From NCBI GenBank assembly GCA_900540545.1, contig UQGJ01000014.1, positions 11,801-43,800 on the forward strand: a stretch of DNA of 32,000 nt. Direction: 5' to 3'. Numbering within the stretch: the first letter of the stretch is position 1; each line of letters begins with the position of its first letter. Made by a program: the position numbers and the translations under genes. The stretch is from an uncultured Eubacteriales bacterium (GTDB lineage: Bacteria; Bacillota; Clostridia; Oscillospirales; Oscillospiraceae). Below the pieces are notes generated by a model. The model worked only from the letters and a program-made list of their open reading frames with translations, searched no databases and was not told the origin of the DNA. Below, in pieces: positions 1 to 31,190 of the stretch.

Positions 1-85
1 TGCCACAATACACTGCGACCTCATTTTGCGTAAATCCGCGCTCTTTTCTACACTGTTTCAAACGTTTTGCTAAAATATCCTTCAT
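1..85 (-). CDS. XRE/Cro-CI-type helix-turn-helix regulator, N-terminal fragment (gene runs off the window start)
   Basis: Reverse complement of 1-85 reads MKDILAKRLKQCRKERGFTQNEVAVYCG, a typical XRE HTH N-terminus. It is open-ended and therefore absent from the ORF track. The region is AT-rich compared with the rest of the window. Confidence 0.6.
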   Translation of the reverse strand, partial: MKDILAKRLKQCRKERGFTQNEVAVYCG

Positions 86-107
86 ACCTTAACACCCACA
101 ATCGTTC

Positions 108-136
108 TTGACAGAGACAGTATAATGGATTAGAAT
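108..136 (+). promoter_or_regulatory. Candidate sigma-A promoter for the 194-463 HTH gene
   Basis: TTGACA (108-113), 17-nt spacer, TAGAAT (131-136). The GGATT-AG-AATCC inverted repeat (128-139) overlaps the -10. A 10-bp palindrome AACAATTGTT lies just downstream and GGATTTAGATTC is repeated at 181-192. Confidence 0.4.
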
Positions 137-193
137 CCAATATATACTAACAATTGTTGGTGTTTTGCTTGAGAATAAAGGATTTAGATTCTG

Positions 194-463
194 GTGGAAC
201 GGAGAGAATGGGCGGTGAAACGTATGGAAGAATCTCAGAGGGAACAGTGGGCTAAGATATTTGGGGAAAATGTGCGGAGACTTCGGGAAAAAGAGGGAAT
301 CAGTGTGGCTGAGTTTGCAAAATACTTACATATTTCTCAGGAGCGGCTGACTCGGTTGGAGGAAGGGGTGATTGATAAGAGATTGAGCATGTCCGTGGTG
401 TTTGCGATTGCCGGGCGGTTCCATCTGAAGGAATATCAGCTGTTTGAGCGGGGAGACGTTTGA
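194..463 (+). CDS. XRE-family helix-turn-helix transcriptional regulator (alternative ATG start at 224)
   Basis: The 89-aa ORF contains FGENVRRLREKEGISVAEFAKYLHISQERLTRLEEG, a classic HTH_3 pattern. It is divergent from the partial HTH gene at 1-85. Low GC. Confidence 0.75.
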   Translation: MERREWAVKRMEESQREQWAKIFGENVRRLREKEGISVAEFAKYLHISQERLTRLEEGVIDKRLSMSVVFAIAGRFHLKEYQLFERGDV

Positions 464-1300
464 GGTCCAGGGGCGGGGCCCCTGCCGGGGGCGGAGTCCC
501 TCCGGGGGGGCCCCTTTCTTCTCGAAGAAAGGGGACGGAAAGAAGGACCGGGGGCGGCACGGGCCACGCTGTGTCCCTATCCGCCGCCCCCTGGACCCCA
601 GAGAACGTCCGGGCGGCGGTACGGTTTATGTTTGTTGGCAAAACCAGAAAGCCGTTGCAGCTCGTATTGGTCTGGCGCTGGAACAACTCCGGCTGCCGCC
701 CCTCGGCATATCACCGGGCAAGACTTGGGAGTCGTTGCGTTTTACTCGGTGCAAACAAGCCGCCACAGGGTCTGTGCGGTTTTGAATTGGCTTTGCGCCT
801 GTTGGGAGTCGGCACGGGCGGCTGATAGCCGCCCCTACAAGAAAGAGACCTTCGGTTTCCCCTGTCCTACGTCCCCCGCAGGGTAGGCTTCTCCACTTGT
901 GGGTTGGCTGCCCGTTGGCGGCTTTGCCGCTTACGGGCAGCTCATGCCCTAGGGGTAGAAGCTGTCGCGCCGTTAGGCGTGACTGATGGGGTGTTACGCT
1001 GAGGGCTTGGTGGTAATCGCCCCATCCGTCACGGGCTACGCCCGTGCCACCTTCCCCACAAGTGGAGAAGGCTACGCCTGCGGGCGGGACGGGGGAAATG
1101 CACTAGCCTTGCCGGGTACTGCCATGCTAGGCGCGCTGCGCCAGCGCATGGGGGGTGACCAACTGCGTGATAGGCCGTAACGGCCGGGGCAGAAGCGGAA
1201 AGGCAGACTTGTTAGCACTAGCCGGTTTCGACTGCCTTGCTTCGTTGGCGCCGCCCCTCGCTCCTTTTTCTTTGGGCCCCCAACCCGTTTCTTTTTCCCG
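464..1300 (+). repeat. Copy A of the non-coding hairpin-mosaic repeat family (longest copy, with nested insertions and a degenerate right end)
   Basis: Aligns module by module with the reverse complement of 18881-19556 and with 30876-31190. Shared runs include GGCGGCGGTACGGTT, GAACAACTCCGGCTGCCGCCC and GGTGCAAACAAGCCGCCAC. No ORF is conserved across copies. Confidence 0.8.
816..838 (-). repeat. REP-like unit: GTAG head plus 8-bp GC hairpin (read on the minus strand)
   Basis: GGGCGGCT-GAT-AGCCGCCC is followed by CTAC (835-838). On the minus strand this reads GTAG immediately 5' of the hairpin. It is homologous to 19212-19236. Confidence 0.5.
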
Positions 1301-6836: not shown

Positions 6837-8570
6837 TTATTCCGGCAGACCAATGACGCCGGTTTGGAAGAGGGCGTCGTCCAGACCGCTTGCCTTGCGG
6901 TTGCGGAGGTAATCTTTATAATAATGAGCTCGGGGGAGGGACATCCAGTATTCGTAGGTATCGGGTAACGCTCCGTCGTGGCTTTTTTTCAATTCCGCTT
7001 CATACCGTTCTCTGGCGGCATAGATATCATTCCGGGCCCACCAGTTATAGCCATCCAGATAGTTCAGATAGAATTCGTCCCAGTCGGAGAAGGTCTCCTG
7101 TGCCATTCGTGCGGCGGGTTCCACAAGTTCCAGGGCATCCTCATAGGTAAGGTAGCCCGCGGTGTAGCCCCACTGCGCCATACTGGACATCCGGGATAAG
7201 TCCCAGGCCAGAATGCCCTTCTCCCCCCACCGCTCACTGATTTCCTTGGTGTAGAGCCACATGTATCGGTCGGTTTCGCCAGACGAGGCGACGAGCGCGG
7301 CAAACTCCTGGTCAGTGAGGCCATTGGTAATTTCGGCGGCCTCCTGAAAACTGTCGTTGTGGCCGTGGGGGGTCATACGCTGGATCAGGGGAATGATGTC
7401 CTCGCGGCCTGTGACGCCCCAGTTGGTTGCCAAGCCATCCCGGGTGCCCTTTACGGATTCCGCGGTGCGCTCATACATACCGAAGAAGATAGGTTTTCCG
7501 ACGGGCGCGGGAAGGCCGTATTCTGCGCCGTAATACTGGTATCCGTAAATCAGGCCCATGGACACAGCCCAGTCCTCCAGATTTGAACCCTCTGCCACCG
7601 ATTTGTCCTCGGTGATGAGTACCCGACTGTCCTTCCCATCCCACGCTACTTTTTGACCAAAGAATTCGGCCACATAGCGGGCGGGGATGAGGGTGTGGCC
7701 CTCGGTGGCGTAGGGGGCCACGTCCATCTCCACCGGCTTGTCGTCCACAGTGGCGGTGGTGCTGCCCAGAGTCATGGTGACGGTGGACCCGGCCCGGGTC
7801 ATCACGATTTCCTGGGTATCCGGTACCCATTCCACATCGGCGCCCAATGCCTCGGCCACAGCTCGGATGGGCACCATGGTGCGGCCGTTGTGGGCTTCAA
7901 GGGCCACATCCATCTTGATTTGCGCCCCATCCAGGAATATCTTCAGAGTCTTTCGGTCCGCCCGGCAGGCTTCCAGTCCAGCGATTACCTTGTCCTTCGT
8001 GGTTTGGGAGGCCAGATACATATACTTTCCAGACAGGAGATCCTCCGTAGTCATACCAAGGTAATCCAGCGCGTCCACCACGCGGCCCCAGCCATCCGCC
8101 GGACCGGGGCTTGAACTCTGGTATACGATGCGGGCACGGCTTTCCTCCACCACCATGTGGTAATAGAGTTCGTCCGGCTCGTGGGTCTGGAGCCATTGTT
8201 CTTCACACCAGAGGAGGTTGTTATACATGGAATAAAAGCAACCACGTGTATCGGGAGTATTGCCGAAACCATAATTGTCTCCGCATTTGATTCTGATGAG
8301 GGCAAGTTCATAGCAGGCCCCAATAGAACTTTTTTTCAGGCCCTCCTCAGGCTCTATTTTCTTCGCTCCGTTTCTTGCCGTCTCCCGAAGAGCCTCAATT
8401 TTAGTCCAGGTTTCGGGGAGGTAGACGGGATCTCCAGGAAATACAATGTAGTCCCCTTGATCGATCCACTCAGGCGTAACGGGGATCACAGGGGTCTCCG
8501 CGGCCAGGGCGGGGGCGGACAGGGAGAGCGCCAGTGAGAGGCACAGCAGGAGCGAACACAGCTTTTTCAA
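6837..8570 (-). CDS. Secreted protein P1: signal peptide + variable Cys-containing N-domain + copper-amine-oxidase-N-like stalk domain + DUF1266-like C-domain
   Basis: TTG start with AAGGAGG RBS. Signal peptide MKKLCSLLLCLSLALSLSAPALA-AE. Stalk motif NGRTMVPIRAVAEALGADVEWV...TLIPARYVAEFFGQKVAWDG. DUF1266-like ILAWDLSRMSSMAQWGYTAGYLTYEDALELV...SDWDEFYLNYLDGYNWW. Confidence 0.88.
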   Translation of the reverse strand: MKKLCSLLLCLSLALSLSAPALAAETPVIPVTPEWIDQGDYIVFPGDPVYLPETWTKIEALRETARNGAKKIEPEEGLKKSSIGACYELALIRIKCGDNYGFGNTPDTRGCFYSMYNNLLWCEEQWLQTHEPDELYYHMVVEESRARIVYQSSSPGPADGWGRVVDALDYLGMTTEDLLSGKYMYLASQTTKDKVIAGLEACRADRKTLKIFLDGAQIKMDVALEAHNGRTMVPIRAVAEALGADVEWVPDTQEIVMTRAGSTVTMTLGSTTATVDDKPVEMDVAPYATEGHTLIPARYVAEFFGQKVAWDGKDSRVLITEDKSVAEGSNLEDWAVSMGLIYGYQYYGAEYGLPAPVGKPIFFGMYERTAESVKGTRDGLATNWGVTGREDIIPLIQRMTPHGHNDSFQEAAEITNGLTDQEFAALVASSGETDRYMWLYTKEISERWGEKGILAWDLSRMSSMAQWGYTAGYLTYEDALELVEPAARMAQETFSDWDEFYLNYLDGYNWWARNDIYAARERYEAELKKSHDGALPDTYEYWMSLPRAHYYKDYLRNRKASGLDDALFQTGVIGLPE

Positions 8571-8696
8571 CGGGGAGACCTCCTTTTTATCCGGGGGACT
8601 GCAAAAATACGGCGCTGTGGAGGGTGTTCCAGGTTCGGGCGCAGCCCAGAACCGGGGGCGAAACGAGAAGCGGAACCCTATTCGCCGTGACCGTAT
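8571..8696 (-). promoter_or_regulatory. Conserved ~125-nt structured leader/intergenic element upstream of P1 (paralogous copy at 10413-10532)
   Basis: A long-range stem AAATACGG / CCGTATTT encloses about 75 nt, including the hairpin GGTTC(T)GGGC-TGC-GCCCGAACC. On the minus strand it is followed by TTTTT and then the RBS. Confidence 0.35.
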
Positions 8697-10412
8697 TTAC
8701 TCAGGTAAACCGATGACGCCGGTTTGGAAGAGGGTGTCGTCGAGCTGAGAGAAGTTCTTGATGGAGATGTAGAAATTTGCGCGGGGCTGCTCCATCCAAG
8801 TCTCCCAGTTGCCGGGGACCTGCATACTGCTGGTGGCCATTCTGGCCTCATATTCCGCCATGATTGTGGCCACGTCGTTGCGGGCCCACCAGTTGTAGCC
8901 GTCCAAATAGTTCATATAGAACTCGTCCCAGCTGGTGAATGTCTCCTGGGTCAGTCGGGCGGCGGGCTCCACCAGTTCCAGAGCCTCGGCGTAGGTGAGA
9001 TACCCGGCCGTATAGCCCCATTGGACCAGCGTTCCCATCCGGGAGAGGTCCCAGGCCAGGATGCCCTTGTCGCCCCACCGCTGGCTGAGCTGCTTGGTAT
9101 AGGGCCACATATACTTGTCGGTCTCGCCGGAGGCGGCGACAAGAGCGGCGAACTCCTGGTCGCTGAGGCTGTTAGCGATGGCGGCGGCCTCCTGGAAGGA
9201 GTCGTTGTGGCCGTGGGCGGTCATGCGGGTGACCAGCTCGATCAGGTCCTGGCGGTTTTGCACGCCCCAGGCGGAGACCAGGGAATTCCGGGTATTCTGG
9301 ACCTGCTGGGCGGTGCGCTCAAACTGGCCGAAGCGGACCTGGCTGTCCCGGTAATAAGAGGCGACGCCCAGGTCGATTTTATTCCGAATCAGCCCCATGG
9401 CTATGGCCCAAGCCTCCAGGTTGGAACTCTCCGCCACAGACTTGTCCTCATTGATCAATACCTGGTGCTTGATTCCGTCCCAGTCCACCGTTTGTCCGAA
9501 GAACTCGGCCACATAGCGGGCGGGGATGAGGGTGCGGCCCTCGGTGGCGTAGGGGGCCACGTCCATCTCCACCGGCTGGCCGTCCACCGTGGCGGTGGTG
9601 GAGTCCAGGGTCATGGTGACGGTGGAGCCGGCCCGTGTGAGGACGATTTTTTGTCCCTCTGGCACCCAGGTCACGTCGGCGCCCAGGGCCTCGGCCACGG
9701 CGCGGATGGGCACCATGGTGCGGCCGTTGCGGGCCTCCGGGGGCACGTCCATGGACAGCTCATTGCCGTCCAGCCAGATTTCGATATGGTTGAAGTAGGC
9801 GCCCCATCCGGCGGCCACCTCGGCCCGGAGGGTCTCCTGTTCCTCGGCGGTGAAAATCTCGGTGTCGGTGAGCTGATTGAGGGTGAACTGGGGAAATTCC
9901 AGCAGATAGGGGATGTATGCGTAGAGTTGTTCGCCCACGCCATAATTGCGCAGAACACCCCGGGCGGCCCACAGCAGCAGGACATATTTCTGCTGGTCGG
10001 TGAGACCCTCCAAAAGTGCGCTCGTCCCGTCTTCCAAGTAGTAGGACAGGTGGACATCGTGAGGGGTTTTTACGCCGTTGTTATTCCGAATCAGGCGGAG
10101 CTCCAGCAGCGCCCGCTCGAACAACACACCCATATCAAAGGAGTTGTCCGACCGCCGCTCGGGCAGGGCGTTAAAGTCCTTGAGCATGGGCAGGGTGGCG
10201 TTGCTGACGGGACCCCACCGCACAATCTCCCGGATGTCGGTGATGACCTTCCAGTGCTCCGGCTCATAGGCGGCGGAACCGGGGAAGACGGCGTACTCCT
10301 CCTCGGGACACCAGGGGGGAGGCGTGGGGGTGACGGCCTCCGCGGCCAGGGCGGGGGCGGACAGGGAGAGCGCCAGGGAGAGACACAACAGGAGCGAACA
10401 CAGCTTTTTCAA
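8697..10412 (-). CDS. Secreted protein P2, paralogue of P1 (signal peptide + variable N-domain + stalk domain + DUF1266-like domain)
   Basis: The signal peptide is identical to that of P1. It has the same stalk and DUF1266-like motifs and the same C-terminal tail LFQTGVIGLPE. Confidence 0.88.
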   Translation of the reverse strand: MKKLCSLLLCLSLALSLSAPALAAEAVTPTPPPWCPEEEYAVFPGSAAYEPEHWKVITDIREIVRWGPVSNATLPMLKDFNALPERRSDNSFDMGVLFERALLELRLIRNNNGVKTPHDVHLSYYLEDGTSALLEGLTDQQKYVLLLWAARGVLRNYGVGEQLYAYIPYLLEFPQFTLNQLTDTEIFTAEEQETLRAEVAAGWGAYFNHIEIWLDGNELSMDVPPEARNGRTMVPIRAVAEALGADVTWVPEGQKIVLTRAGSTVTMTLDSTTATVDGQPVEMDVAPYATEGRTLIPARYVAEFFGQTVDWDGIKHQVLINEDKSVAESSNLEAWAIAMGLIRNKIDLGVASYYRDSQVRFGQFERTAQQVQNTRNSLVSAWGVQNRQDLIELVTRMTAHGHNDSFQEAAAIANSLSDQEFAALVAASGETDKYMWPYTKQLSQRWGDKGILAWDLSRMGTLVQWGYTAGYLTYAEALELVEPAARLTQETFTSWDEFYMNYLDGYNWWARNDVATIMAEYEARMATSSMQVPGNWETWMEQPRANFYISIKNFSQLDDTLFQTGVIGLPE

Positions 10413-10532
10413 AGGAAAGACCTCCTTTTTATCCGTGGGACTGCAAAAATACGGCGCTGTGGGGGGTGTTCCAGGTCCAGCCCAGAACTGGGGACGAAAC
10501 GGGAAGCGGGACTCGCTCGCCGTTGACCGTAT
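10413..10532 (-). promoter_or_regulatory. Second copy of the conserved leader (upstream of P2)
   Basis: Aligns with 8571-8696, sharing AAATACGG...GCGCCGTATTTTTGCAGTCCC.CGGATAAAAAGGAGGTC. The internal hairpin carries a short deletion. Confidence 0.35.
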
Positions 10533-11666
10533 TTACTCCAGCAGGCCGATGACGCCGGTTTCGAAGAGGGTATCGTCGAAGATGGGGGCCAGGTCGGGGT
10601 CGGCCTTCATCTCCAGATAGAGCTTGCCCCGGGCGCTCTCCCACACGTTCTGGTCCAGGCCGTTACTCTTGGACCACCAAGTGTAGCCGTCCAGATAGTT
10701 TTCATAGGCCTCGTCCCAGGAGGAGAAATTCTCGCTCAGGAGGGTGGCGGCGGGCTCCAGCAGCAGGAGGGCCTCCTCATAGGTCACGTACCCGGCGCTG
10801 TAACCCCACTGGACCAGATTGCTCATGCGGAACAGATCCCAGGCGAGGATGCCGCGGTCTCCCCACTTTTCGTCCAGGGCAGACGTGAACTCCCACATAT
10901 AGGGGGGCCAGTCGAAGGACGGATTGCTGGCGGCCTGGGCATCCAGGGCGGCCTTTTCCTCCGCCGTCAGGTTCCTCGCATCCTCTGCGGCGCTGAAAAA
11001 CGTGGCGTTATGGCCATAGAAGGTCATACTCAGGACGGACTCCACCAAATCGTCCCGTTCCGGGATGTTCCAAGAGCTGCCGCTCAGCACCCGGGCGCTC
11101 TGCTTTGCGGTGGACGCGCTCCGGCGGTACAGGCCGAACCAAGCCGGGCTTCCCTGGTTGAGCTTCGCCAGCATGGCCCCCATGGGGAGGGCCCACGCCT
11201 CCAGGTTGGAGTCCCCCACCACCGATTTGTCCTCGGCAATGTCCACCCGGCGGGCCTCGCCGTCCCAGGCCACGGTCTGGCCGAAGAATTCGGCCACATA
11301 GCGGGCGGGGATGAGAGTGCGGCCCTCGGTGGCGTAGGGGGCCACGTCCATCTCCACCGCCACGCCGTCCACGGTGGCGGTGGTGGAGTCCAGGGTCATG
11401 GTGACGGTGGAGCCGGCCCGGGTCATCACGATCTCCTGGGTGTCCGGCACCCATTCCACGCCGGCGCCCAATGCCTCGGCCACGGCGCGGATGGGCACCA
11501 TGGTGCGCTCGCTGCGGACCTCCGGCGGGACATCCAGTTTCAGTTCCCGGTCATCCAGGAAGAGCTTGATGCCGCCGTCCTCTTGCGCCGCCTCCGCGGC
11601 CAGGGCGGGGGTGAGGAGGGGACAGGCCAAGGCCAAGGTCAGGATCACCGCCAGCAGCTTTTTCAT
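10533..11666 (-). CDS. Secreted protein P3: signal peptide + stalk domain + DUF1266-like domain (no variable N-domain)
   Basis: Internal ATG at 11666 with RBS GGAAAGGAG. Signal peptide MKKLLAVILTLALACPLLTPALA-AE. The Pro/Ser/Arg-rich upstream extension to 11810 is rejected. C-terminal tail LFETGVIGLLE. Confidence 0.85.
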   Translation of the reverse strand: MKKLLAVILTLALACPLLTPALAAEAAQEDGGIKLFLDDRELKLDVPPEVRSERTMVPIRAVAEALGAGVEWVPDTQEIVMTRAGSTVTMTLDSTTATVDGVAVEMDVAPYATEGRTLIPARYVAEFFGQTVAWDGEARRVDIAEDKSVVGDSNLEAWALPMGAMLAKLNQGSPAWFGLYRRSASTAKQSARVLSGSSWNIPERDDLVESVLSMTFYGHNATFFSAAEDARNLTAEEKAALDAQAASNPSFDWPPYMWEFTSALDEKWGDRGILAWDLFRMSNLVQWGYSAGYVTYEEALLLLEPAATLLSENFSSWDEAYENYLDGYTWWSKSNGLDQNVWESARGKLYLEMKADPDLAPIFDDTLFETGVIGLLE

Positions 11667-11700
11667 GATTGACTCCTTTCCAGTCGGGGGGGATACGGAT

Positions 11701-14649
11701 TTAGAAATCCAGCTCGTCCCAGGGGATGATTTTGGCGTTCTCAGGGGGGAGGGCGGCGGGGGGCGCGGAGACCTCCTTGGACTCGGAGGAGGCGGTGACG
11801 GTGAAGTCAAACTGGTTCTTATAGTGGACCTCGCCGGTCAGGGTCTGCTTTCCGCCGGCGCTCTTGGCGTCCATGGTGATTTGGAAATCCACGAAGCGAC
11901 CCAGGGTCCGGCCGGGGCGCATATCCATCTCCATGGCGTAGTCGCCGTTGTCGTGGACGGTGACGGTGAAGGCGCAGGCCCGGAAGGCGTCCTCGCCGTC
12001 CAGAGGGTCGTAGGAGTAAGGGACATCAGGGTCCGGGGCGGTGAGGTCCCGGATGAGGTCGTTGACGGTCTTGGTGTCCAGGGAGTAGGTCAGGGCGTTG
12101 CCCGCGCGGGTGAAGCGGCCGTCGCCCAAGAGGAGCGCCACCTGGTCGGCCTGCTCCAGCAGGCCGGCGTAGCTGTCCACGCCTACGGGGTCATAGTAGG
12201 ACCACTTCAGGCGGCGTGCGATGACGCTGTCGTAGAGCATGGCGCCCACGTTGAGGAGGGGGAGGGAGTCCACGGTGCCGTCCTTGTCCACGGTCTCGGT
12301 GGGCAGGGCCGCGCCGGGGGTCACGTAGAAGGGATAGAAGGAATCCAGGTCCATGGAGACCCAGTCGTCCTTGCCCACCGACTCGTCCAGCAGAGAGAAC
12401 AGGGGGGACTGGAGGTACAGGAGCTGGGTGTCCACGTTCCAGTAGAGCTTAAAGGTGGTGGACTTCAGCAGGGTCTTGAGGGTGGAGAGGCTGAACTTGG
12501 CTTCGCTCTGGTCCAGCATCTTCTGAACGTCGGCCCAGTCCTCCTTCGTAAGCTGGGAGAGGACCCCGGCCAGGTCCAGCTTGAGCTCGCACTCCATGGA
12601 GCCCTTGCCGGCCACGGTGGTGGCGTCGATTTTCACGGTGTAGGTCCTGTCGCCGTCCAGGCTGTTGAACAGGGTCAGGTCGATGGTCTCGCTGGAGGTG
12701 GTGCGGATGTTCCGCTGGGCGGTGTCCACCGCCTTGCCCAGCAGGGTGGAGAGCATCCGGTCGATTTGGGTAAAGTTTTGATTCAGCTCCGCGGCGATGG
12801 CCTCAGGGTCGAAGAGGACGGCGGTATCGTAGCCCGCGTCCCAGGCCAGGCCGCAGCCGAAGGCATCGGCCAAATCCCGGAGGGGGACGTAGGTGCGGCC
12901 GTCCTCGGCAAAGGCGGGGGAACTCATGGTGTATTTGCGGTCCTTGCCGTCGGTGGTGAGGGTGTACTTTTTGCCCTCCAGGGGGAAGGTCACGGTGACG
13001 CCGCCCTTGTCGCAGACGGCGGCGTTGGTGGTCTCGTCAAAGGAGACGGTATAGCCCAGGGCTTCGGCCAGGGCGCGGACGGGGATCATGGTGCGGTCGT
13101 TCCGGGCCACGGGCTTGGCGTCGGGGAAGGAGAGGTAGGCCCCGTTGAGCATGACGCTGAGCTCGCCGGGGACGCCGCCCAGCTCCCGCTTGTGGGCGTC
13201 CCGCTGGGCCTTGGCCTCGGCGTTGGCAGCCCGGTCGGCCTTCCAGCTCTCGTAGAGGGCGGCGTAGGCGGACTCCTTCACGGTAAGGTAGTTATCGTCC
13301 ATGTAGTCCTGGAGACTGGTATAGCGGGGATAGTAGTGGGAGGCGTTATACTCGCCGGACTGGAACCAGCGCTCCACGTCGGCCACGAAGGCGGCGGTGT
13401 CCTCGGGCTCGGCGGCCTGGAAGGCGGCCCACTGGTCCTGGGCGGCCTGGGCGGCCTCCTGCTCCTGGATCATGTAGTAGAGCATCTCGGTACGGAACTG
13501 CTCCTCGCTGTCGGTGGTGGGAGCCAGCTCCATATACTCCTGCTTGGAGTCATAGTAGCGGTCGGCGTTATAGACTTCCTTGAAGTACTGGTCGGCGTCG
13601 AAGGCGGCGAATTCCTCCGGGTGTTCCGCGGCCCAGGCGTCCACCTCGGCCTGCATATCCGCGTTTGCGGCCTGCGTATCCAGCATGTCCAGGAGCATGG
13701 CCAGCCGGAATTCTTCCTCGGTATCAAGGCGATAGGCGTCCATATATTCTTCTTTGTCGCCGTAATAGGGATAATGCGTTTCCAGCCAGGCGTCGGCGTC
13801 GAAAGCGGCGTACTCGTCGGGGTGGGCGGCGCTCCATGCGTCGGCCCGGGCCTGGCGCCGCTCGGCGCCCACCTGGCTCTGCACCCACAGCCAGGTCATC
13901 TGGCGCAGGAATTCCTCCTCCGTGGCGTACCCGTAGGAGGACATGTACTCTTCCATGGTCCAGTAGCTGTAAGTATCCTCAAAGAACTCCATGGGGTCGA
14001 ACTCGGCAAATTCCTCCGGGTGTTCGGCGGCGTAGGCGTCGATGTCGGTTTGCTGTTCGGCGGCGGTCTCCTGCTCCTGGATCATGAAGTAGAGCATCTC
14101 GGCGCGGAACTGCTCCTCGCTGTCGGTGATGGGAGACATCTCCATAAACTCCTGCTTGGAGTCATAGTAGCGGTCGGCGTTATAGACTTCCTTGAAGTAC
14201 TGGTCGGCATCGAAGGCGGCATACTCCTCCGGGTGTTCGGCGGCCCAGGCGGCCACCTTCTCCTGGATCATGCCCGTCCAATACTGCTCGGAGAGCCAGT
14301 CCTCCCGCATGTTTTCCTGGAAATCGGCCTCGGTATAGAGGTCGAAGTAATACATATAGTCCTTCTTGGCGTAGTAGCTGCCGTAGCGCGCTGTGAACCA
14401 GCCGTCGGCGTCGAATTCGGCGCTGTGGGCGGCCCAGTAGGCGTCTTTCCAGGCTGCGGCGTCGGCTGCCTCCTGAGCCTGTTCGCCGTACTCGTCCTCG
14501 GTCATGTACTGGCGCTCCAGCATGTCTTCCAGGGAGGTATAGCCGCGCTCCTTCCAGAGGGGTGGATCGGTGTCCTGGTACGCCAGGGCGGGGGCAAAAA
14601 GAGTGCAGGACATTGCCAGGGTCAGGACCAGCGCCAGCAGTTTTTTCAT
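11701..14649 (-). CDS. Large secreted protein P4: signal peptide + six ~62-aa acidic/aromatic repeats + stalk domain + ~380-aa unassigned C-domain
   Basis: 982 aa. Signal peptide MKKLLALVLTLAMSCTLFAPALA-YQ. The repeats resemble AWAAEHPEE(Y/F)AAFDADQYFKEVYNADRYYDSKQE.ME...TDSEEQFR.EMLY.MIQEQE. Stalk motif NDRTMIPVRALAEALGYTV...GRTYVPLRDLADAFG. Confidence 0.85.
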   Translation of the reverse strand: MKKLLALVLTLAMSCTLFAPALAYQDTDPPLWKERGYTSLEDMLERQYMTEDEYGEQAQEAADAAAWKDAYWAAHSAEFDADGWFTARYGSYYAKKDYMYYFDLYTEADFQENMREDWLSEQYWTGMIQEKVAAWAAEHPEEYAAFDADQYFKEVYNADRYYDSKQEFMEMSPITDSEEQFRAEMLYFMIQEQETAAEQQTDIDAYAAEHPEEFAEFDPMEFFEDTYSYWTMEEYMSSYGYATEEEFLRQMTWLWVQSQVGAERRQARADAWSAAHPDEYAAFDADAWLETHYPYYGDKEEYMDAYRLDTEEEFRLAMLLDMLDTQAANADMQAEVDAWAAEHPEEFAAFDADQYFKEVYNADRYYDSKQEYMELAPTTDSEEQFRTEMLYYMIQEQEAAQAAQDQWAAFQAAEPEDTAAFVADVERWFQSGEYNASHYYPRYTSLQDYMDDNYLTVKESAYAALYESWKADRAANAEAKAQRDAHKRELGGVPGELSVMLNGAYLSFPDAKPVARNDRTMIPVRALAEALGYTVSFDETTNAAVCDKGGVTVTFPLEGKKYTLTTDGKDRKYTMSSPAFAEDGRTYVPLRDLADAFGCGLAWDAGYDTAVLFDPEAIAAELNQNFTQIDRMLSTLLGKAVDTAQRNIRTTSSETIDLTLFNSLDGDRTYTVKIDATTVAGKGSMECELKLDLAGVLSQLTKEDWADVQKMLDQSEAKFSLSTLKTLLKSTTFKLYWNVDTQLLYLQSPLFSLLDESVGKDDWVSMDLDSFYPFYVTPGAALPTETVDKDGTVDSLPLLNVGAMLYDSVIARRLKWSYYDPVGVDSYAGLLEQADQVALLLGDGRFTRAGNALTYSLDTKTVNDLIRDLTAPDPDVPYSYDPLDGEDAFRACAFTVTVHDNGDYAMEMDMRPGRTLGRFVDFQITMDAKSAGGKQTLTGEVHYKNQFDFTVTASSESKEVSAPPAALPPENAKIIPWDELDF
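13240..14465 (-). repeat. Intragenic tandem repeats of P4 (six units); units 2 and 5 are near-identical at DNA level
   Basis: 14069-14256 versus 13457-13646 show about 13 mismatches in about 190 nt by eye. The other units are recognisable only at protein level. Confidence 0.7.
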
Positions 14650-15137
14650 GTTTGACTCCTTTCCAGTCGCGCGGAAGGATTTTGCACGATGTACGAGCGG
14701 GTCTCCGAGAGGTCCTGGGGGTTGCGGAGGATGTGGTCGTAGTAGTCATCCTGCCACACGGGCTTTCCCCATGTTCGGGTGGTAAAGCCCTTCAAGGCAT
14801 TGATGACCTGTGGCAGTGATGTAGGGGCCGCCGACCCCGGTGGCCCGTCTCCGGTCAATTGTATCAACAGGTGGACATGGTCCGGCATAATGATATATTG
14901 GTCTACATGGACATCGGGGTAAGCACAGTCAATGCCTTGAATCAACTGGTCTACAATCTGGCCTAAAGGGGTGAGCTGAAGCCGCGGGCCGCCGGGGTCG
15001 GCGGCCCCTACGGGCAGAAGAGAGGAAAAGATGTTTTGGTTTCTGACCTTGGCGCAGATGGTGACGAAATAAAATCCGGGCTGGGAATAATCGTAATGCT
15101 TCAAATGGTGATATTTGCGCACCGGATATGGGTTCAT
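14646..15137 (-). CDS. Y1/HUH transposase-like protein (IS200/IS605 TnpA fold; RayT / REP-associated tyrosine transposase-like), apparently orphan
   Basis: ATG at 15137 with GAGGTG RBS. HUH motif in IIMPDHVHLLIQ, the family pattern GKPVWQDDYYDHILRN, and a candidate catalytic Tyr in TRSYIVQNP. Its stop overlaps the P4 start (ATGA). Confidence 0.82.
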   Translation of the reverse strand: MNPYPVRKYHHLKHYDYSQPGFYFVTICAKVRNQNIFSSLLPVGAADPGGPRLQLTPLGQIVDQLIQGIDCAYPDVHVDQYIIMPDHVHLLIQLTGDGPPGSAAPTSLPQVINALKGFTTRTWGKPVWQDDYYDHILRNPQDLSETRSYIVQNPSARLERSQT

Positions 15138-15150
15138 CCATCCCACCTCT

Positions 15151-17133
15151 TTACGAAATATCCGCCAGCTCCAGGTATTTATAGCCGTTTTCGGCAATGT
15201 GGTCCTTTCTGCCGCTGAGGTTGTCGCCCAGGAGGAGGTCGAAGGTGGCAGCGGTCCGGGCTACGTCCTCGGGCATGACCTTGATGAGACGGCGGGTGTC
15301 CGGGTTCATGGTGGTCAGCCACATCATGTCCGGCTCGTTCTCGCCCAGGCCCTTGGAGCGCTGGATGGTGAACTTTTTGCCCTCCAGCTCCCTGAGGATG
15401 TCGGCCTTCTCCGTCTCGTTATAGGCGAACCAGGTTTTTTCCTTGAAGGTGATTTCGTAGAGGGGGGATTCCGCGATATAGACGTAGCCCCGCTGGATGA
15501 GGGTGGGGGTCAGGCGGTAGAGCATGGTGAGGACCAGGGTTCTGATTTGGTAGCCGTCCACGTCGGCGTCGGTACAGATGACCACCTTGTTCCACCGCAG
15601 GTTCATCAGGTCGAATTCCGGCAGGTCCTTGGCCCGCTTGTCGTGGACCTCCACGCCGCAGCCCAGGACCTTCAGCAGGTCGGTGATGATCTCCGACTTG
15701 AATATCTTGCCGTAGTCGGCCTTGAGGCAGTTCAAGATTTTGCCCCGGATGGGCATGATGCCCTGGAAGTCCGAGTCCCGGGCCAGCTTCACCGAGCCCA
15801 GGGCCGAGTCGCCCTCCACGATATACAGCTCCCGGCGCTCGGTGTCCTTGGTGCGGCAGTCCACGAATTTCTGGACCCGGTTGGAGATGTCCATGCTGCC
15901 GGTGAGCTTTTTCTTGATGTTCAGGCGGGCCTTCTCGGCGGACTCCCGGGAACGCTTGTTAATGAGGACCTGCTCGGCGATTTTGCCCGCGTCGAAGGGG
16001 TTCTCGATGAAGTAGACCTCCATCTGGGCCTTCAAAAACTCGGTCATGGCCTCCTGGACGAACTTGTTGTTGATGGCCTTTTTGGTCTGGTTCTCGTAGG
16101 AGGTCTGGGTGGAGAAGTTGTTGGAGACCATCACCAGACAGTCCTGGATGTCGGCCCAGGTGATTTTGCTCTCCGACTTCTGGTATTTGCCCTGCTGCTT
16201 GAGGTAGCCGTCGATGGCAGAGACCAGGGCGGACTTCATGGCCTTTTCCGGGCTGCCGCCGTGCTCCAGCCAGGAGGAGTTGTGGTAGTGCTCAATGATC
16301 TGCACCGTGTTAGAGAAGCACAGGGAGACGGAGAGCTTCACCTTATACTCCGGCTTGTCCTCCCGGTCCCGGCCCTTGCGCTCGGTCTGCCAGAACACGG
16401 GGGTGGTGAGGGCGTTCTCCCCGGCCAGCTCCCGGACGTAGTCCACGATGCCGTTTTCGTACTTGAACTCGGTGGTCTCGAATTTGCCCCCCACCTGGTT
16501 GCGGAAGCGGAAGGTGATGCCCGCGTTGACCACGGCCTGGCGCTTCATCACATCCAGGTAGAACTCGGGGGGGATATTGGTGTCGGTGAACACGTCCAGG
16601 TCGGGCAGCCAGTGGAATTTGGAGCCGGTCTTTTTGCCGGTATAGGGGGTCTTGGTCAGACCGCCCACGTTCTCGCCCTTTTCAAAGTGGAGGGTGTACT
16701 CGAAGCCGTCCCGGTGGATGACGGCGTCGAAGTACCGGCTGGCATACTGGGTGGCGCAGGAGCCCAGGCCGTTGAGGCCCAGGGAGTACTCGTAGTTGTC
16801 GCCGTCGCCGGTGCCGTACTTGCCGCCGGCGTACAGCTCGCAGAACACCAGCTCCCAGTTGAACTTCTGCTCCTTCTCGTTCCAGTCCACCGGGCAGCCC
16901 CGGCCGAAGTCCTCCACCTCGATGGAGTGGTCCTCGTACCGGGTGACGGTGATGACGTCGCCGTGGCCCTCCCGGGCCTCGTCGATGGCGTTGGACAAAA
17001 TCTCAAAGACGGCGTGCTCGCAGCCCTCCAGCCCGTCGGAGCCGAAGATGACGCCGGGGCGCTTGCGGACCCGGTCGGCCCCCTTCAGGGCGGAGATGGA
17101 TTCGTTGCCGTAGTGTTTACTGCTCTTTGGCAT
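15151..17133 (-). CDS. parE: Type IIA DNA topoisomerase subunit B (ParE/GyrB family)
   Basis: 660 aa with the GHKL ATPase motif EILSNAIDEA, Toprim LYIVEGDSALGS, PIRGKILN and DADVDGYQIRTL. Confidence 0.93.
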   Translation of the reverse strand: MPKSSKHYGNESISALKGADRVRKRPGVIFGSDGLEGCEHAVFEILSNAIDEAREGHGDVITVTRYEDHSIEVEDFGRGCPVDWNEKEQKFNWELVFCELYAGGKYGTGDGDNYEYSLGLNGLGSCATQYASRYFDAVIHRDGFEYTLHFEKGENVGGLTKTPYTGKKTGSKFHWLPDLDVFTDTNIPPEFYLDVMKRQAVVNAGITFRFRNQVGGKFETTEFKYENGIVDYVRELAGENALTTPVFWQTERKGRDREDKPEYKVKLSVSLCFSNTVQIIEHYHNSSWLEHGGSPEKAMKSALVSAIDGYLKQQGKYQKSESKITWADIQDCLVMVSNNFSTQTSYENQTKKAINNKFVQEAMTEFLKAQMEVYFIENPFDAGKIAEQVLINKRSRESAEKARLNIKKKLTGSMDISNRVQKFVDCRTKDTERRELYIVEGDSALGSVKLARDSDFQGIMPIRGKILNCLKADYGKIFKSEIITDLLKVLGCGVEVHDKRAKDLPEFDLMNLRWNKVVICTDADVDGYQIRTLVLTMLYRLTPTLIQRGYVYIAESPLYEITFKEKTWFAYNETEKADILRELEGKKFTIQRSKGLGENEPDMMWLTTMNPDTRRLIKVMPEDVARTAATFDLLLGDNLSGRKDHIAENGYKYLELADIS

Positions 17134-18218: not shown

Positions 18219-18839
18219 ATGAGACGAACCCTGTGCGCCCTGGCGCTGACCCTGTCCCTGTGCGGGGGACTGGCCGTCCCGGCCCTGGCCGCGGGCTATG
18301 CCGACGTGCCCGCCGGAAGCTGGTACGCCGGGGCGGTGGAGAAGGTCACGGCCGAGGGCGTGATGAACGGCACCACCGAGACCACCTTCGACCCCGACAG
18401 CTTTGTGACCCGGGGCATGGTCATGGCCGTGCTGTGGCGGCTGGCCGGGTCCCCCGCCCCCGAGGGGGCCTCGGACTTCTCCGACCTCCAAGCGTGGTAT
18501 TACTACGCCGACGCCGTGGCCTGGGGCCAGGAGCAGGGCATCGCCACCGGCCTGGGGAACGGGACCTTCGGCGGCGGCGACACCGTGACCAGGGAACAGC
18601 TGGCCGTGTTCCTCTACCGCTACGCCCTGGCCACCGGCGGGGAGATCGCCGCCGGTGTGCTGGACCCCTACGAGGATGCCGGGACGGTCCACGCCTGGGC
18701 GCTGGAGGGCGTGGCCCACGCCGTGGGGGCGGGGCTGATCACCGGGGACAGCGACGGGAAGCTGTCCCCCGCCGGGAACGCCACCAGGGCGCAGCTGGCC
18801 GTCATTTTGCAGCGGCTGATGACGCCGGCGGTGGGATAA
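18219..18839 (+). CDS. Secreted S-layer-homology (3x SLH) domain protein (alternative GTG start at 18198)
   Basis: Signal peptide ...LSLCGGLAVPALA-AG. Three SLH-like repeats: YADVPAGSWYAGAVEKV..., FSDLQAWYYYADAVAWGQEQGI... and YEDAGTVHAWALEGVAHAVGAGLITG.... Confidence 0.85.
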   Translation: MRRTLCALALTLSLCGGLAVPALAAGYADVPAGSWYAGAVEKVTAEGVMNGTTETTFDPDSFVTRGMVMAVLWRLAGSPAPEGASDFSDLQAWYYYADAVAWGQEQGIATGLGNGTFGGGDTVTREQLAVFLYRYALATGGEIAAGVLDPYEDAGTVHAWALEGVAHAVGAGLITGDSDGKLSPAGNATRAQLAVILQRLMTPAVG

Positions 18840-18847
18840 AGCGTATG

Positions 18848-18878
18848 GGACCGTGTACAGGGTACACGGTCCTTTTTT
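18848..18878 (+). terminator. Rho-independent terminator of the SLH gene
   Basis: GGACCGTGTAC-AGG-GTACACGGTCC (11-bp stem) followed by TTTTTT. Confidence 0.8.
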
Positions 18879-18880
18879 GT

Positions 18881-19556
18881 CCGCCTGCGGGCGGGGAGGG
18901 GGGGGAGCGACCCCCTCCGGGGGTGTCGCCTCCGGCGGGGGTCCTCTTTCTCATTTGAGAAAGAGGACGGAAAGAAAACCAGGGCCGCGGCCCTGGACCT
19001 AGGGGCGGCGCCAACGGGGCTTGGGGGTTGAGACCGGCTTGTGGGGACAAGTCTGCCTTTTTGCTTCCGCCCCGGCCGTTACGGCCTAATGTGCGGTTGG
19101 TCCACCTGTTGCGCTGGCGCGGCGCGCCTAGCGTGGCGAGTCCCGGCAAGGCGGGTGCAGAGACGGGCCGCCGAGGTCGGCGGCCCCTACGGCATGAGCC
19201 GAAGGTCTCTTGTAGGGGCCGCCCACTGGGCGGCCCGTGCAGACTGGCGATAGGCGCAAGACCCCGTAAAAGGCGCATAAACCTTGTGGCGGCTTGTTTG
19301 CACCGAGTAAAACGCAACTATTATCAAGTTTTGCCGGGTCATATGCCGAGGGGCGGCAGCCGGAGTTGTTCGGGCGCGTGCCAATACCGGGCTGCAACGG
19401 CTTTCAAGTCTTGCCAGCAAACGTGAACCGTACCGCCGCCCGGACGTTCCCTGGGTCCAGGGGGCGGCGGATAGGGCATTGAAAATGCCCGTGCCGCCTC
19501 CGGCCCTTCTTTCCGTCCCCTTTCTTCGAGAAGAAAGGGGACCCGCCGGAGGCCCC
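18881..19556 (-). repeat. Copy B of the hairpin-mosaic repeat family (inverted relative to A and C), bounded by ~55-bp terminal inverted repeats
   Basis: Ends 18929-18983 and 19500-19552 are inverted copies: CCTCCGGCGGG.TCC-[CTTTCT..AGAAAG palindrome]-GACGGAAAGAA. The interior is collinear with the reverse complement of copy A. Confidence 0.8.
19165..19236. repeat. REP/BIME-like doublet: two GTAG-headed GC hairpins in inverted orientation
   Basis: 19165-19190 is GGGCCGCCG-AGGT-CGGCGGCCC-CTAC, which has a GTAG head on the minus strand. After a 21-nt linker, 19212-19236 is GTAG-GGGCCGCCC-ACT-GGGCGGCCC. Confidence 0.55.
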
Positions 19557-19674: not shown

Positions 19675-20133
19675 ATGAAGGGTTCCAACGACATTCTGAT
19701 GACCTATCTGCGGGTGTCCCAGCACATGTCCCGGCTGTTCCGGGACCACTATGGGCGGCTGCAGCTCACCTTCCCCCAGGCCCTGGTACTCACGGTGTTG
19801 GGCGAGGAGGGGCCGGTGCCCATCAGCGCCCTGGCCGAGCGCACCGGCAGCGCCAACTCCACTGTGTCCGGCATTGTGGACCGGCTGGAAAAGCTGGGGC
19901 TGGCCCGGCGGGAGCGGTCCGGGGAGGACCGGCGGGTCATCTACGTCACCGCCACCGAAAAATTTGACTGTCTGCGCAAGCGGGCCGAGACCGACGTGGG
20001 CGGTTATTTCAGCTCGGTTTTGGAGAGCATGACAGAGGAGGAGCGCCGGGCCGTCGCCCAGGCGCTGACCCGGCTGGACGAGGCGCTGCTGGACAAGGAG
20101 GCCCAGGATGCCGCGGCGGTGAAAAAAGGGTGA
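19675..20133 (+). CDS. MarR-family transcriptional regulator (alternative ATG at 19669)
   Basis: Winged-helix pattern LTFPQALVLTVLGEEGPVPISALAERTGSANSTVSGIVDRLEKLGLARRERSGEDRRVIYV. RBS AAGGAG lies 7 nt upstream of 19675. Confidence 0.85.
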   Translation: MKGSNDILMTYLRVSQHMSRLFRDHYGRLQLTFPQALVLTVLGEEGPVPISALAERTGSANSTVSGIVDRLEKLGLARRERSGEDRRVIYVTATEKFDCLRKRAETDVGGYFSSVLESMTEEERRAVAQALTRLDEALLDKEAQDAAAVKKG

Positions 20134-30408: not shown

Positions 30409-30410
30409 CA

Positions 30411-30446
30411 AAAAGGCGGACCCTCAATCGAGGGTCCGCCTTTTTT
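30411..30446. terminator. Bidirectional Rho-independent terminator
   Basis: AAAA-GGCGGACCCTC-AATC-GAGGGTCCGCC-TTTTTT. It ends the V-ATPase operon. The stop codon of the convergent RHH gene lies inside the stem. Confidence 0.85.
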
Positions 30447-30597
30447 CGTATTTCTTCAACAGGTCCTCAATGGCCTCGTCTAGGAGACGGGATTTGGGGA
30501 CGCGGGTCTCAACCGAAAGCTGAGTAAACAGCGGTACTAATTCATTTTTGAGAGAAGAAACAAACTTCGTCCGATTTACCAATTGCGCTTCGCCCAT
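30424..30597 (-). CDS. Small ribbon-helix-helix (CopG/Arc-like) protein, 57 aa
   Basis: Below the ORF-track size cut-off. Reverse-complement translation gives MGEAQLVNRTKFVSSLKNELVPLFTQLSVETRVPKSRLLDEAIEDLLKKYEKRRTLD, with a beta-strand followed by the RHH helix pattern (SRLLDEAI). RBS-like GGTGGTG. Low GC. Confidence 0.55.
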   Translation of the reverse strand: MGEAQLVNRTKFVSSLKNELVPLFTQLSVETRVPKSRLLDEAIEDLLKKYEKRRTLD

Positions 30598-30707
30598 ATT
30601 GTCACCACCTATATACTATATAGTCACTATATCATAACCACTTTTTTGCAACAAGTGGTTTACAAGTGGTACATACATGGTATATACTAAGTACAGAGGT
30701 GATATAC
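30598..30707. promoter_or_regulatory. Divergent AT-rich control region with repeated operator-like motifs
   Basis: TATATACTA occurs twice (about 30611 and 30682). There is an inverted repeat CCACTT-N9-AAGTGG and a direct repeat CAAGTGG...CAAGTGG. Confidence 0.4.
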
Positions 30708-30875
30708 ATGGAAGAGAAAAAGACCTGTGAGACTTGCTCGCACTTTTTCCTGCACTACGTCAAGTGGGGGAAAAAGGATTTCAGGCCGGTTCGGATGGGG
30801 CATTGTGGGACGCCTAGGATTCGCAGTAAAACCATGGACACCCCCGCCTGCCGGTGGTATCAAGAGAGGACGTAG
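30708..30875 (+). CDS. Small Cys/His-rich hypothetical protein (55 aa, possible zinc ribbon)
   Basis: ATG at 30708 with RBS AGAGGTG. Product MEEKKTCETCSHFFLHYVKWGKKDFRPVRMGHCGTPRIRSKTMDTPACRWYQERT has CxxC...HC...C. Low GC. Confidence 0.5.
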   Translation: MEEKKTCETCSHFFLHYVKWGKKDFRPVRMGHCGTPRIRSKTMDTPACRWYQERT

Positions 30876-31190
30876 GGACAAGGGCGCGGCCCCTGCCGGG
30901 GGCGTTCCTTTCTCATTTGAGAAAGGAACCGAAAGAAAACCAGGGGGATGACACGGGGAACTTTGTTCCCCTATCGTCATCCCCCTGGACCCCGGGAACG
31001 TCCTGGCGGCGGTACGGTTTTCGGGGGCTGGCAAGACTTGAGAGCTGTTGCAGCTCGGATTGGTCTGGCGCTGGAACAACTCCGGCTGCCGCCCATCGGC
31101 ATATGACCTGGCAAGATTTGTGAGCAGTTGCGTTTTTCTTGGTGCAAACAAGCCGCCACCAGTCTCAGAGTCCCCCGTCCCCCGCAGGGA
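30876..31190 (+). repeat. Copy C of the hairpin-mosaic repeat family (left end plus core only)
   Basis: It starts about 8 nt after the stop codon, as copy A does (GGCCCCTGCCGGGGGCG). It has a 12-bp palindrome at 30904-30929, a two-tier hairpin at 30943-30985, and a core collinear with A 590-775. Confidence 0.8.

Follow-up and report, generated by a model that had tools for sequence, protein, structure and literature searches.

The 32,000-nt stretch of contig UQGJ01000014.1 analysed here (the window) holds three copies of a non-coding, hairpin-rich sequence, A at 464-1300 (+), B at 18881-19556 (-) and C at 30876-31190 (+), which raises the question of what kind of element this sequence represents. 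The initial annotation, made from the DNA letters alone, had offered a mobile element with hairpin ends or a family of structured RNAs. Our results support the first answer and speak against the second. We found dispersed copies, conserved inverted ends, an empty orthologous site, contig breaks in hairpins and no coding capacity, whereas hallmarks of classical miniature inverted-repeat transposable elements (MITEs) were not found, as no target-site duplication was seen and no parent insertion sequence (IS) was identified. The copies probably belong to a high-copy, non-coding and non-autonomous DNA repeat family, either a mosaic resembling repetitive extragenic palindromic (REP) sequences and bacterial interspersed mosaic elements (BIMEs) or an unusually large element resembling REPINs (REP doublets forming hairpins) and MITEs. 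This family is previously undescribed; its kind (REP/BIME, MITE) is already known and its architecture is new.

A dispersed repeat family with inverted ends

The collinearity of the three copies was confirmed by a repeat search, a three-way alignment and matches to module hidden Markov models (HMMs). The 21-mer GAACAACTCCGGCTGCCGCCC and the 19-mer GGTGCAAACAAGCCGCCAC, both quoted in the initial annotation, occur exactly three times each compared with 0.00-0.01 expected occurrences, and GGCGGCGGTACGGTT is identical in the alignment of A, B and C. The internal duplication was recovered as the 22-nt motif GGCAARAYTTGNNARNNGTTGC, which is present twice per copy (6 matches, 0 expected). The two ends of copy B were described as inverted copies, and indeed 18939-18976 and 19507-19544 are 82% complementary over 38 nt, with an 11-bp perfect hairpin in each end. 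In all full copies this inverted similarity reaches about 55-70 nt, since the L-end and R-end HMMs cross-match each other's positions. The module HMMs also bore out that copy C consists of the L-end and core 1 only, and that copy A retains core 2, has an unrecognisable R-end and carries an additional nested insertion. The copies have no reading frame in common, in line with the earlier description: six-frame translations of the copies show frame shifts and stops. A protein-coding reading was therefore rejected, and the spurious products are without Pfam match (seven open reading frame (ORF) products, E<=1).

The canonical unit measures 0.55-0.7 kb and comprises the L-end, core 1, a link, one or two central GTAG-tagged REP hairpins, core 2 and the inverted R-end. 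In the L-end an optional hairpin hp1 (GGAGGGC..GCCCTCC or GGCAGGG..CCCTGCC) is followed by the word CCGG(G/C)GGG, hairpin hp2 with a stem of 10-11 bp and a loop of 4 nt, the spacer GAAAGAA(A/G)(A/G)(A/C)C, hairpin hp3 and CTGGACC. The hp3 hairpin is nested: its inner stem (7 bp) and outer stem (8-10 bp) are accompanied by the unpaired bases AC and CTAT(C). The R-end repeats this layout in inverted form; its hp2 is of a separate subtype and its hp3 is short. Central hairpins of the form GTAGGGGC(C/G)GCC-loop-GGC(G/C)GCCC lie at the middle of nearly all copies, as head-to-head doublets in B, 21a and 28b and singly in the others (numbered labels denote copies outside the window). The motif GGCARACTTG occurs three times in direct orientation. 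Partial copies were found as well: 28x is without core 1, 28b without core 2 and C without everything past core 1.

Further copies were reached by using the spurious ORFs of the element as search handles. An ORF across copy B matched one protein, P0001, which is the translation of a full B-like element, and a search with P0001 against 1.84 billion representative proteins added 13 more element translations (P0001-P0014). These are 'hypothetical proteins' of gene callers, 88-262 aa long and without Pfam match; in one locus (L033) the called gene 18708-19439 overlaps element 33c. The contigs encoding these proteins or proteins of the window formed our loci L021-L036. Five module HMMs identified about 21 elements in 138.5 kb of non-redundant sequence of the same species, and in most of them the module order was complete. 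The alignment of full-length copies extends over their whole length, and the order of the five modules is the same almost everywhere. Without the copies that led to the loci, 12 remain in about 106 kb, a density of about one per 9 kb, and the window copies occupy 1.8 of 32 kb, although such densities are extrapolations from biased samples.

A plain segmental duplication or an assembly artefact would account for the sequence similarity itself and nothing more. The approximately 21 copies lie in unrelated gene contexts with the same ends and with unrelated flanking sequences, and they are independently present in NCBI, ENA and Logan assemblies. We consider this explanation practically excluded.

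The window belongs to the same species as the human-gut metagenome-assembled genome (MAG) GCA_902470985.1. Judging from CinA homologues, the organism belongs to the uncultured Oscillospiraceae, and its closest relatives with a name are Intestinimonas (76%) and Flavonifractor (73-74%). In the MAG, contig CABRIL010000020.1 breaks off within copy B, at window position 18946 (position 1 of L023). Moreover, two Logan contigs end inside hp2, one in copy B at 19529 (position 1 of L024) and one in copy C at 30910 (the end of L022). Three short-read contigs ending inside hp2 hairpins indicate that the family fragments the assemblies of this species. If the sampled density holds genome-wide, one repeat family would make up several per cent of the genome of a gut bacterium and break its short-read assemblies. 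Knowing the family would aid assembly, binning and annotation of MAGs, the latter since gene callers turn the copies into the spurious proteins P0001-P0014. On a contig of a 97% strain (L036, 1-244), a duplicated piece of the CinA 5' coding region is fused to the outer L-end hairpin of 21b, which is probably a chimeric assembly at the repeat.

Searches of other collections gave no further members. Copy A had no blastn match in phage and plasmid collections, and two pattern scans of IMG/VR (exact or degenerate) gave no match. The invariant 18-mer GTGCAAACAAGCCGCCAC had chance matches in unrelated coding DNA only among GTDB species representatives and JGI metagenomes, from which the family is missing and apparently the species too. 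A concatenated five-frame query of the protein index returned 8000 low-complexity candidates, none of them significant.

Evidence for insertion came from a related species (L034; CinA 83% identical) with the same gene order Mg-chelatase, ThiI, CinA, MatE, DUF5655 and PALP, whose 17 kb gave no HMM or BLAST match to any module. Its ThiI-CinA spacer measures 30 nt compared with 886 nt in the species studied here, where element 21b follows the ThiI stop codon and precedes the CinA ribosome-binding site. The spacer of the relative is the empty orthologous site that the initial annotation had suggested looking for; this single empty site is that of a species diverged by about 17%. A strain diverged by about 5% carries an orthologous 21a copy that differs about as much as the adjoining CinA gene. 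Therefore, the expansion preceded the split of the strains and, provided that the 83% relative did not lose the family, followed the split from that relative. Paralogous core 1 sequences are 78-91% identical (mean 84%), none being closer. The copies are the same in the three assemblies of the L027/L028/L029 region, and the contig of the 21a orthologue is short and chimeric at its other end. Target-site duplications had also been proposed as a check, and no convincing one abuts the ends of the 14 full copies, whose outer boundary is blurred by the variable hp1 hairpins.

Additional hairpins were observed next to the family. At 1274-1530 and 18881-18928 of the window, extra GC-rich hairpins lie outside the five modules (e.g. 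CCGCCTGCGGGCGG, GGCCCACAGGCC, TTCGCCGCG...). Since they recur in other spacers, the extragenic DNA of the organism contains several further small hairpin families. Spacers of L034 (6636-6801, 9290-9835 and 12651-12926) carry different GC-rich hairpins, e.g. CCTCCCTTACGAAGGGAGG, GGACTGTCCCCCGGACAGTCC and CCGCCCGCAGGGCGG. The clade thus seems to share hairpin mosaics whose families differ between lineages, as L034 is without this family and yet has its own hairpin set.

The family occupies extragenic DNA bordering at least one gene 3' end. Copies A, C, 21a, 21b, 26, 27d, 28b, 28x and 33b have an end 0-15 nt from a stop codon, and B, 25, 30, 31a, 31b and 33a lie directly past the intrinsic terminator of the upstream gene. 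Abutting a stop codon or a terminator is therefore a habit of the whole family; the observation that A and C start at stop codons of small genes stands, while a special link to small low-GC genes was rejected. According to the gene tables, about 6 of 12 convergent spacers, 12 co-directional ones and 0 of about 10 divergent ones are occupied, a trend that is not significant. Orientation relative to the neighbours is mixed: between co-directional genes 8 copies are antisense and 4 sense, and 6 copies lie between convergent genes. The same placement bias towards gene 3' ends has been described for REPs (PMC3733652). In 21a-MatE, 21b-CinA, 28a and 28b the L-end lies 15-30 nt upstream of the ribosome-binding site of the next gene, so that expression of these genes must cross the element or start within it. 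The copies probably affect the expression of neighbouring genes, judging from their positions 0-30 nt from stop codons or ribosome-binding sites in former operons such as ThiI-CinA-MatE.

Palindromic hairpins and unstructured cores

The per-hairpin folds of hp2 and hp3 in 23 end modules contain 513 Watson-Crick and 2 G-U pairs, and 13 distinct hp2 and 19 distinct hp3 sequences were found among them. The two strands do not differ in fold energy. None of the 23 hp2 stems has fewer than 9 perfect pairs; core 1 diverges from its consensus by 10.6%, and an unprotected 22-nt stem would be intact with a probability of about 0.085. As the hp3 stems were out of register in the MAFFT alignment, they were realigned with a covariance model before counting. 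In this alignment 95.7% of the cells are paired compared with 79.3% in shuffles, double-sided changes number 66 compared with 21.7 and the covariation score is 0.422 compared with 0.145. None of 500 shuffles reached the observed values, and in slid-partner controls pairing fell to 48-63%. The alignment includes reverse-strand and duplicate-locus matches, with identical rows counted once, and the counts lean towards the structure to which it was fitted, whereas the per-hairpin folds are independent of it. Moreover, the two strains that are about 5% diverged differ in hp2' of the orthologous 21a copy, where G-C is swapped to T-A. Folded as single-stranded DNA, the whole of copy B reached z = -8.4. 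Due to the inverted ends, both strands present the same hairpins. The hairpins are thus kept as perfect Watson-Crick palindromes despite a divergence of about 16% of the surrounding sequence between copies. Perfect palindromes in old copies suggest either selection in place, with a REP/BIME-like role for the host, or self-templated repair of quasi-palindromes.

The hp2 and hp3 stems covary strongly, which would also suit a structured non-coding RNA family, i.e. a small-RNA gene or a 3'-untranslated-region element whose core and hairpins act in the transcript. Many copies begin directly past a stop codon, and TTTTCTTTC located 3' of hp3 is terminator-like for transcripts leaving the element, which is likewise compatible with this explanation. 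At one aligned position of core 1, promoter-like matches were present in 10-11 of 17 copies; they are weak (8-9 of 12) and occur on both strands, and an outward promoter in core 1 was not accepted. However, on both strands the fold of core 1 is no more stable than that of shuffled sequence (z +0.43 and -0.51), and no predicted core pair shows a double-sided change across the 17 copies. A long-range core helix of GGCGGCGG with CTGCCGCC was rejected, as six copies read CTATCGCC with the partner unchanged. Besides, the 2 G-U among 515 pairs, the equal fold energies of the two strands, the mutually inverted ends, the mixed orientation between co-directional genes and the position of several copies downstream of the upstream gene's own terminator argue against a function in the transcript. 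An Rfam cmscan of the whole window, at the gathering threshold and at E<=1, revealed nothing at the copies, its matches being a tRNA-Gly and two sub-threshold chance matches elsewhere. The initial annotation had not recognised a named RNA family either, and the RNA half of the earlier alternative is very unlikely.

Another explanation is that the copies are architectural or regulatory DNA kept by the host, with a BIME-like function and without current mobility, for example binding gyrase or nucleoid proteins, or guarding or terminating mRNA 3' ends. This would be compatible with a REP-like DNA repeat family and appears possible, though less than probable. The copies are old according to their core identity (78-91%, none higher) and yet every hairpin is perfect, and the base-pair swap in 21a is a compensatory change between orthologous copies of two strains. 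The location at gene 3' ends, with no copy in divergent promoter regions, points in the same direction, and the threefold GGCARACTTG is a candidate protein-binding site. On the other hand, a close relative has no copy of the family and manages nonetheless, template-switch repair can maintain perfect palindromes without function, and the depletion in divergent spacers (0 of about 10) is no more than a trend.

Candidate mobilisation and known repeat systems

A gene for a Y1 (HUH) transposase resembling REP-associated tyrosine transposases (RAYTs) is located in the window (Table 1) and encodes a candidate trans-acting partner. The protein contains the HUH motif PDHVHLLI and the tyrosine region DDYYDHIL, matches PF01797 (Y1_Tnp) with 24.4 bits (cutoff 23) and has its best NCBIfam match in NF047646 'REP-associated tyrosine transposase' with 53 bits, below the cutoff of 80. 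Two GTAG REP hairpins (14821-14851 and 14985-15011; 96% complementary to each other) lie in frame inside the ORF of the gene (14646-15197), where they encode VGAADPGGP and GPPGSAAPT and bracket a 137-nt segment with the HUH motif. The first arm of the copy B doublet is 94% complementary to a REP inside this gene, which is squeezed between a Cu_amine_oxidN1 gene and a topoisomerase B-subunit gene with no flanking non-coding DNA.

We propose that the element would act at the DNA level, its hairpins extruding in single-stranded DNA. Recognition might depend on the hairpin shape and a few conserved unpaired bases, namely AC ... CTATC in hp3 and GTAG in the central REP. The enzyme would probably be a Y1/HUH transposase such as the RAYT-like protein. 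Resident copies may then be kept by the host for REP-like roles, e.g. protecting or ending upstream transcripts or binding nucleoid proteins. Y1 transposition by IS200/IS605 TnpA or RAYTs recognises folded single-stranded DNA and generates no target-site duplication. That no such duplication is visible at 14 full copies fits an HUH enzyme, as do covarying stems and conserved unpaired bases.

A more specific version, a RAYT-dependent 'giant REPIN', is tentative and on balance doubtful. It would be a 0.6-kb composite replicator built around GTAG REPs in a Firmicute, with about 300 copies (about 5-9% of the sampled sequence) and, in every copy, hairpins kept intact by selection in place. If true, these sequences would form a population inherited vertically and integrated into the host, with a size and an architecture undescribed for REPIN-RAYT systems.

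Several findings weigh against a mobile REP-like family. No near-identical copies were found (maximum core identity 91%), the assemblies of the species that were compared show no presence/absence difference, and no copy was seen to move. A repeat of this kind does not account for the long invariant runs of cores 1 and 2, and perfect palindromes could arise without selection by template-switch repair within quasi-palindromes. The connection to the RAYT-like protein runs through the central hairpins only, as the outer ends are without the GTAG/CTAC tag; the protein scores below the NCBIfam cutoff and the REPs are inside its gene instead of flanking it. Furthermore, true inverted ends of 55-100 nt are more typical of MITEs of DDE transposons.

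The latter provide a serious rival explanation, although an unlikely one, in which the family is a classical MITE, an internally deleted IS derivative mobilised in trans by a DDE transposase acting on terminal inverted repeats (TIRs) of 55-100 nt. True inverted repeats at the ends, seen in copy B and in the cross-matches of the end HMMs, the untagged outer ends and the fact that neither a transposition event nor a polymorphism was seen keep it in consideration. A non-coding unit of 0.55-0.7 kb that is extragenic and present in many copies would fit as well, and a word AACGA/TCGTT is found near both flanks of the 21b site, though not adjacent to the ends. Against a DDE-dependent MITE, no target-site duplication was found, no copy encloses an ORF and the gene tables of about 140 kb contain no transposase gene besides the RAYT-like one. 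No related autonomous IS with the same ends was present in this sequence or in the phage, plasmid and viral collections. Moreover, covarying end hairpins suggest recognition of shape, which DDE enzymes do not need. Known MITEs include Correia/NEMIS of Neisseria, ERIC/IRU, bcr1 of Bacillus cereus and Nezha of cyanobacteria. They share with the present family the non-coding and non-autonomous nature, terminal inverted repeats, a length of hundreds of bases, dispersed extragenic location and folding into long hairpins. The family differs from them in lacking a detected target-site duplication or parent IS, in its ends of nested perfect hairpins with covarying stems and in the GTAG REPs at its centre.

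Palindrome-associated elements of IS200/IS605 (PATEs) and integron attC sites resemble the family in folded-hairpin recognition with conserved unpaired bases and variable stems; duplications are absent in PATEs and were not seen here, and attC sites are likewise placed directly past stop codons. However, PATE ends are not mutually inverted and use a fixed target tetranucleotide. In our family the ends are mutually inverted and no conserved word precedes the L-ends, and membership among the PATEs was therefore rejected. The attC sites measure 57-141 bp, form cassette arrays beside an integrase and contain R/L boxes, which the family does not have.

Along with MITEs, the closest kinds are the REP and BIME sequences of enterobacteria and pseudomonads and the REPINs mobilised by RAYTs, which like the family are extragenic and high-copy, consist of GC-rich palindromic hairpins of alternating orientation with conserved linker motifs between them and follow coding regions between convergent or co-directional genes. 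The GTAG-tagged central hairpins with possible head-to-head doublets and the presence of a RAYT-like Y1 gene match as well, and no target-site duplication was seen. With about 21 copies, the mosaic layout and the gene 3'-end placement correspond to BIMEs of the E. coli type, a match that concerns architecture alone. In contrast, the unit of 0.55-0.7 kb is 5-10 times larger than REPs and BIMEs (35-150 bp), contains two long cores of about 170 and 160 nt that are conserved and unstructured, carries untagged hp2/hp3 hairpins as long inverted repeats at its outer ends and resides in a Firmicute. Unlike a REPIN, it is not bounded by REP hairpins, its REPs being located mid-unit, and the REPs of the RAYT-like gene lie within the ORF and not on its flanks. 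The family would also supply a natural collection of hairpins, variable in their stems and conserved in their bulges, for studying the recognition of hairpins in single-stranded DNA.

In a survey from 2013, Di Nocera et al. described GTAG REPs in Proteobacteria, Cyanobacteria, Chloroflexi and PVC and did not mention Firmicutes (PMC3733652), to which the present family would add a repeat system of the REP/RAYT type. The same survey reported that GTAG dimers are regularly inserted within long palindromes in Anabaena variabilis and similar cases (PMC3733652). It also described RAYT-like genes tied to families of long TIRs instead of REPs, such TIR families with tyrosine transposases being termed 'TIRtrons' (PMC3733652). 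Both features resemble the present arrangement and are the nearest published analogues that we found. Nevertheless, the palindromes around the nested dimers are about 40-60 bp long and have no conserved internal cores (PMC3733652), and, as a difference from TIRtrons, the TIRs of our element do not flank the RAYT-like gene. We found no literature on such repeats in Oscillospiraceae or Flavonifractor.

Features of the window and neighbouring observations

Table 1. Modules of the canonical unit, of the three window copies and the RAYT-like gene
Feature	Position or length	Strand	Score	Composition and surroundings
Unit, L-end	~105 nt			
Unit, core 1	~170 nt			
Unit, link	~44 nt			
Unit, central hairpin region	variable			
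Unit, core 2	~160 nt			
Unit, R-end	~100 nt			
Copy A, L-end	464-598	+	78 bits (Lend HMM, 496-598)	hp1 outer hairpins 464-510; hp2 CCCCTTTCTTC-TCGA-GAAGAAAGGGG 511-534; GAAAGAA spacer; nested hp3 550-591; TGGACC; begins at the base next to the stop codon of an HTH_3 gene (194-463)
Copy A, core 1	601-769	+	179 bits	conserved, unstructured, non-coding; includes GGCGGCGGTACGG, the GGCAARAYTTG..GTTGC motif twice and GGTGCAAACAAGCCGCCAC
Copy A, link and central GTAG-tagged REP hairpin	771-838	+		REP GTAGGGGCGGCTATCAGCCGCCCG on the - strand at 799-838
Copy A, nested insertion	845-1097	+		at the central REP site, not in other copies; inverted arms GTAGGCTTCTCCACTTGTGGG 883-903 and CCCACAAGTGGAGAAGGCTAC 1055-1075, REPIN-like, GTAG...CTAC
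Copy A, core 2 and degenerate R-end	1098-1300	+	153 bits (core 2, 1098-1258)	TTTCTTT remnant kept; no hairpin and no R-end HMM match
RAYT-like Y1 (HUH) transposase gene	14646-15137	-		candidate trans-acting partner
Copy B, R-end	18881-18998	-	81 bits (Rend HMM, 18901-18998)	outer nested hairpins 18881-18932; hp2' TCCTCTTTCTC-ATTT-GAGAAAGAGGA 18942-18967; then GAAAGAAAACC, short hairpin AGGGCCGCGGCCCT, GGACC; directly 3' of the intrinsic terminator (18847-18880) of an SLH-domain gene
Copy B, core 2	19000-19160	-	149 bits	
Copy B, central head-to-head doublet	19151-19251			GTAG REP hairpins 19151-19190 (-) and 19212-19251 (+), 21-nt spacer
Copy B, link and core 1	19238-19280 and 19283-19451	-	177 bits (core 1)	
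Copy B, L-end	19453-19556	-	94 bits	hp3, GAAAGAA, hp2, CCTCCGGCGGG terminus; faces a MarR gene with start near 19675
Copy C, L-end	30876-30993	+	84 bits	hp1 GGGCGCGGCCCC; hp2 TTCCTTTCTC-ATTT-GAGAAAGGAA; hp3 GGGGGATGAC..GTCATCCCCC; begins at the base next to the stop codon of a 55-aa gene (30708-30875)
Copy C, core 1	30995-31190	+	176 bits (30995-31161)	truncated beyond, without link, REP, core 2 and R-end; promoter region and start (31259) of the PALP gene downstream

Between the V-ATPase operon and copy C lies a low-GC islet (30409-30875). It contains a 57-aa RHH_3 gene (30424-30597, -) and, divergent from it, the 55-aa Cys-rich gene next to copy C (+), which is without family match; the AT-rich region between the two holds repeated ACTATATAG-like words. 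In the related species L034, the PALP gene has a different neighbour.

On the other side of the window, the 3' part (about 40 nt) of tRNA-Gly(GCC) (1732-1807, -) is duplicated 160 nt away at 1573-1615 with about 90% identity. This partial duplicate looks like an attachment-site remnant of an integrated element, of which window positions 1-463, with low GC content and the HTH_3 gene, may be a part.

Further inside the window, three tandem paralogous genes of about 1.8 kb (Cu_amine_oxidN1 and DUF1266) were found at 6837-11810 (-), which are 75-94% identical in stretches and are followed by a 982-aa relative with internal repeats of a period of about 200 nt.

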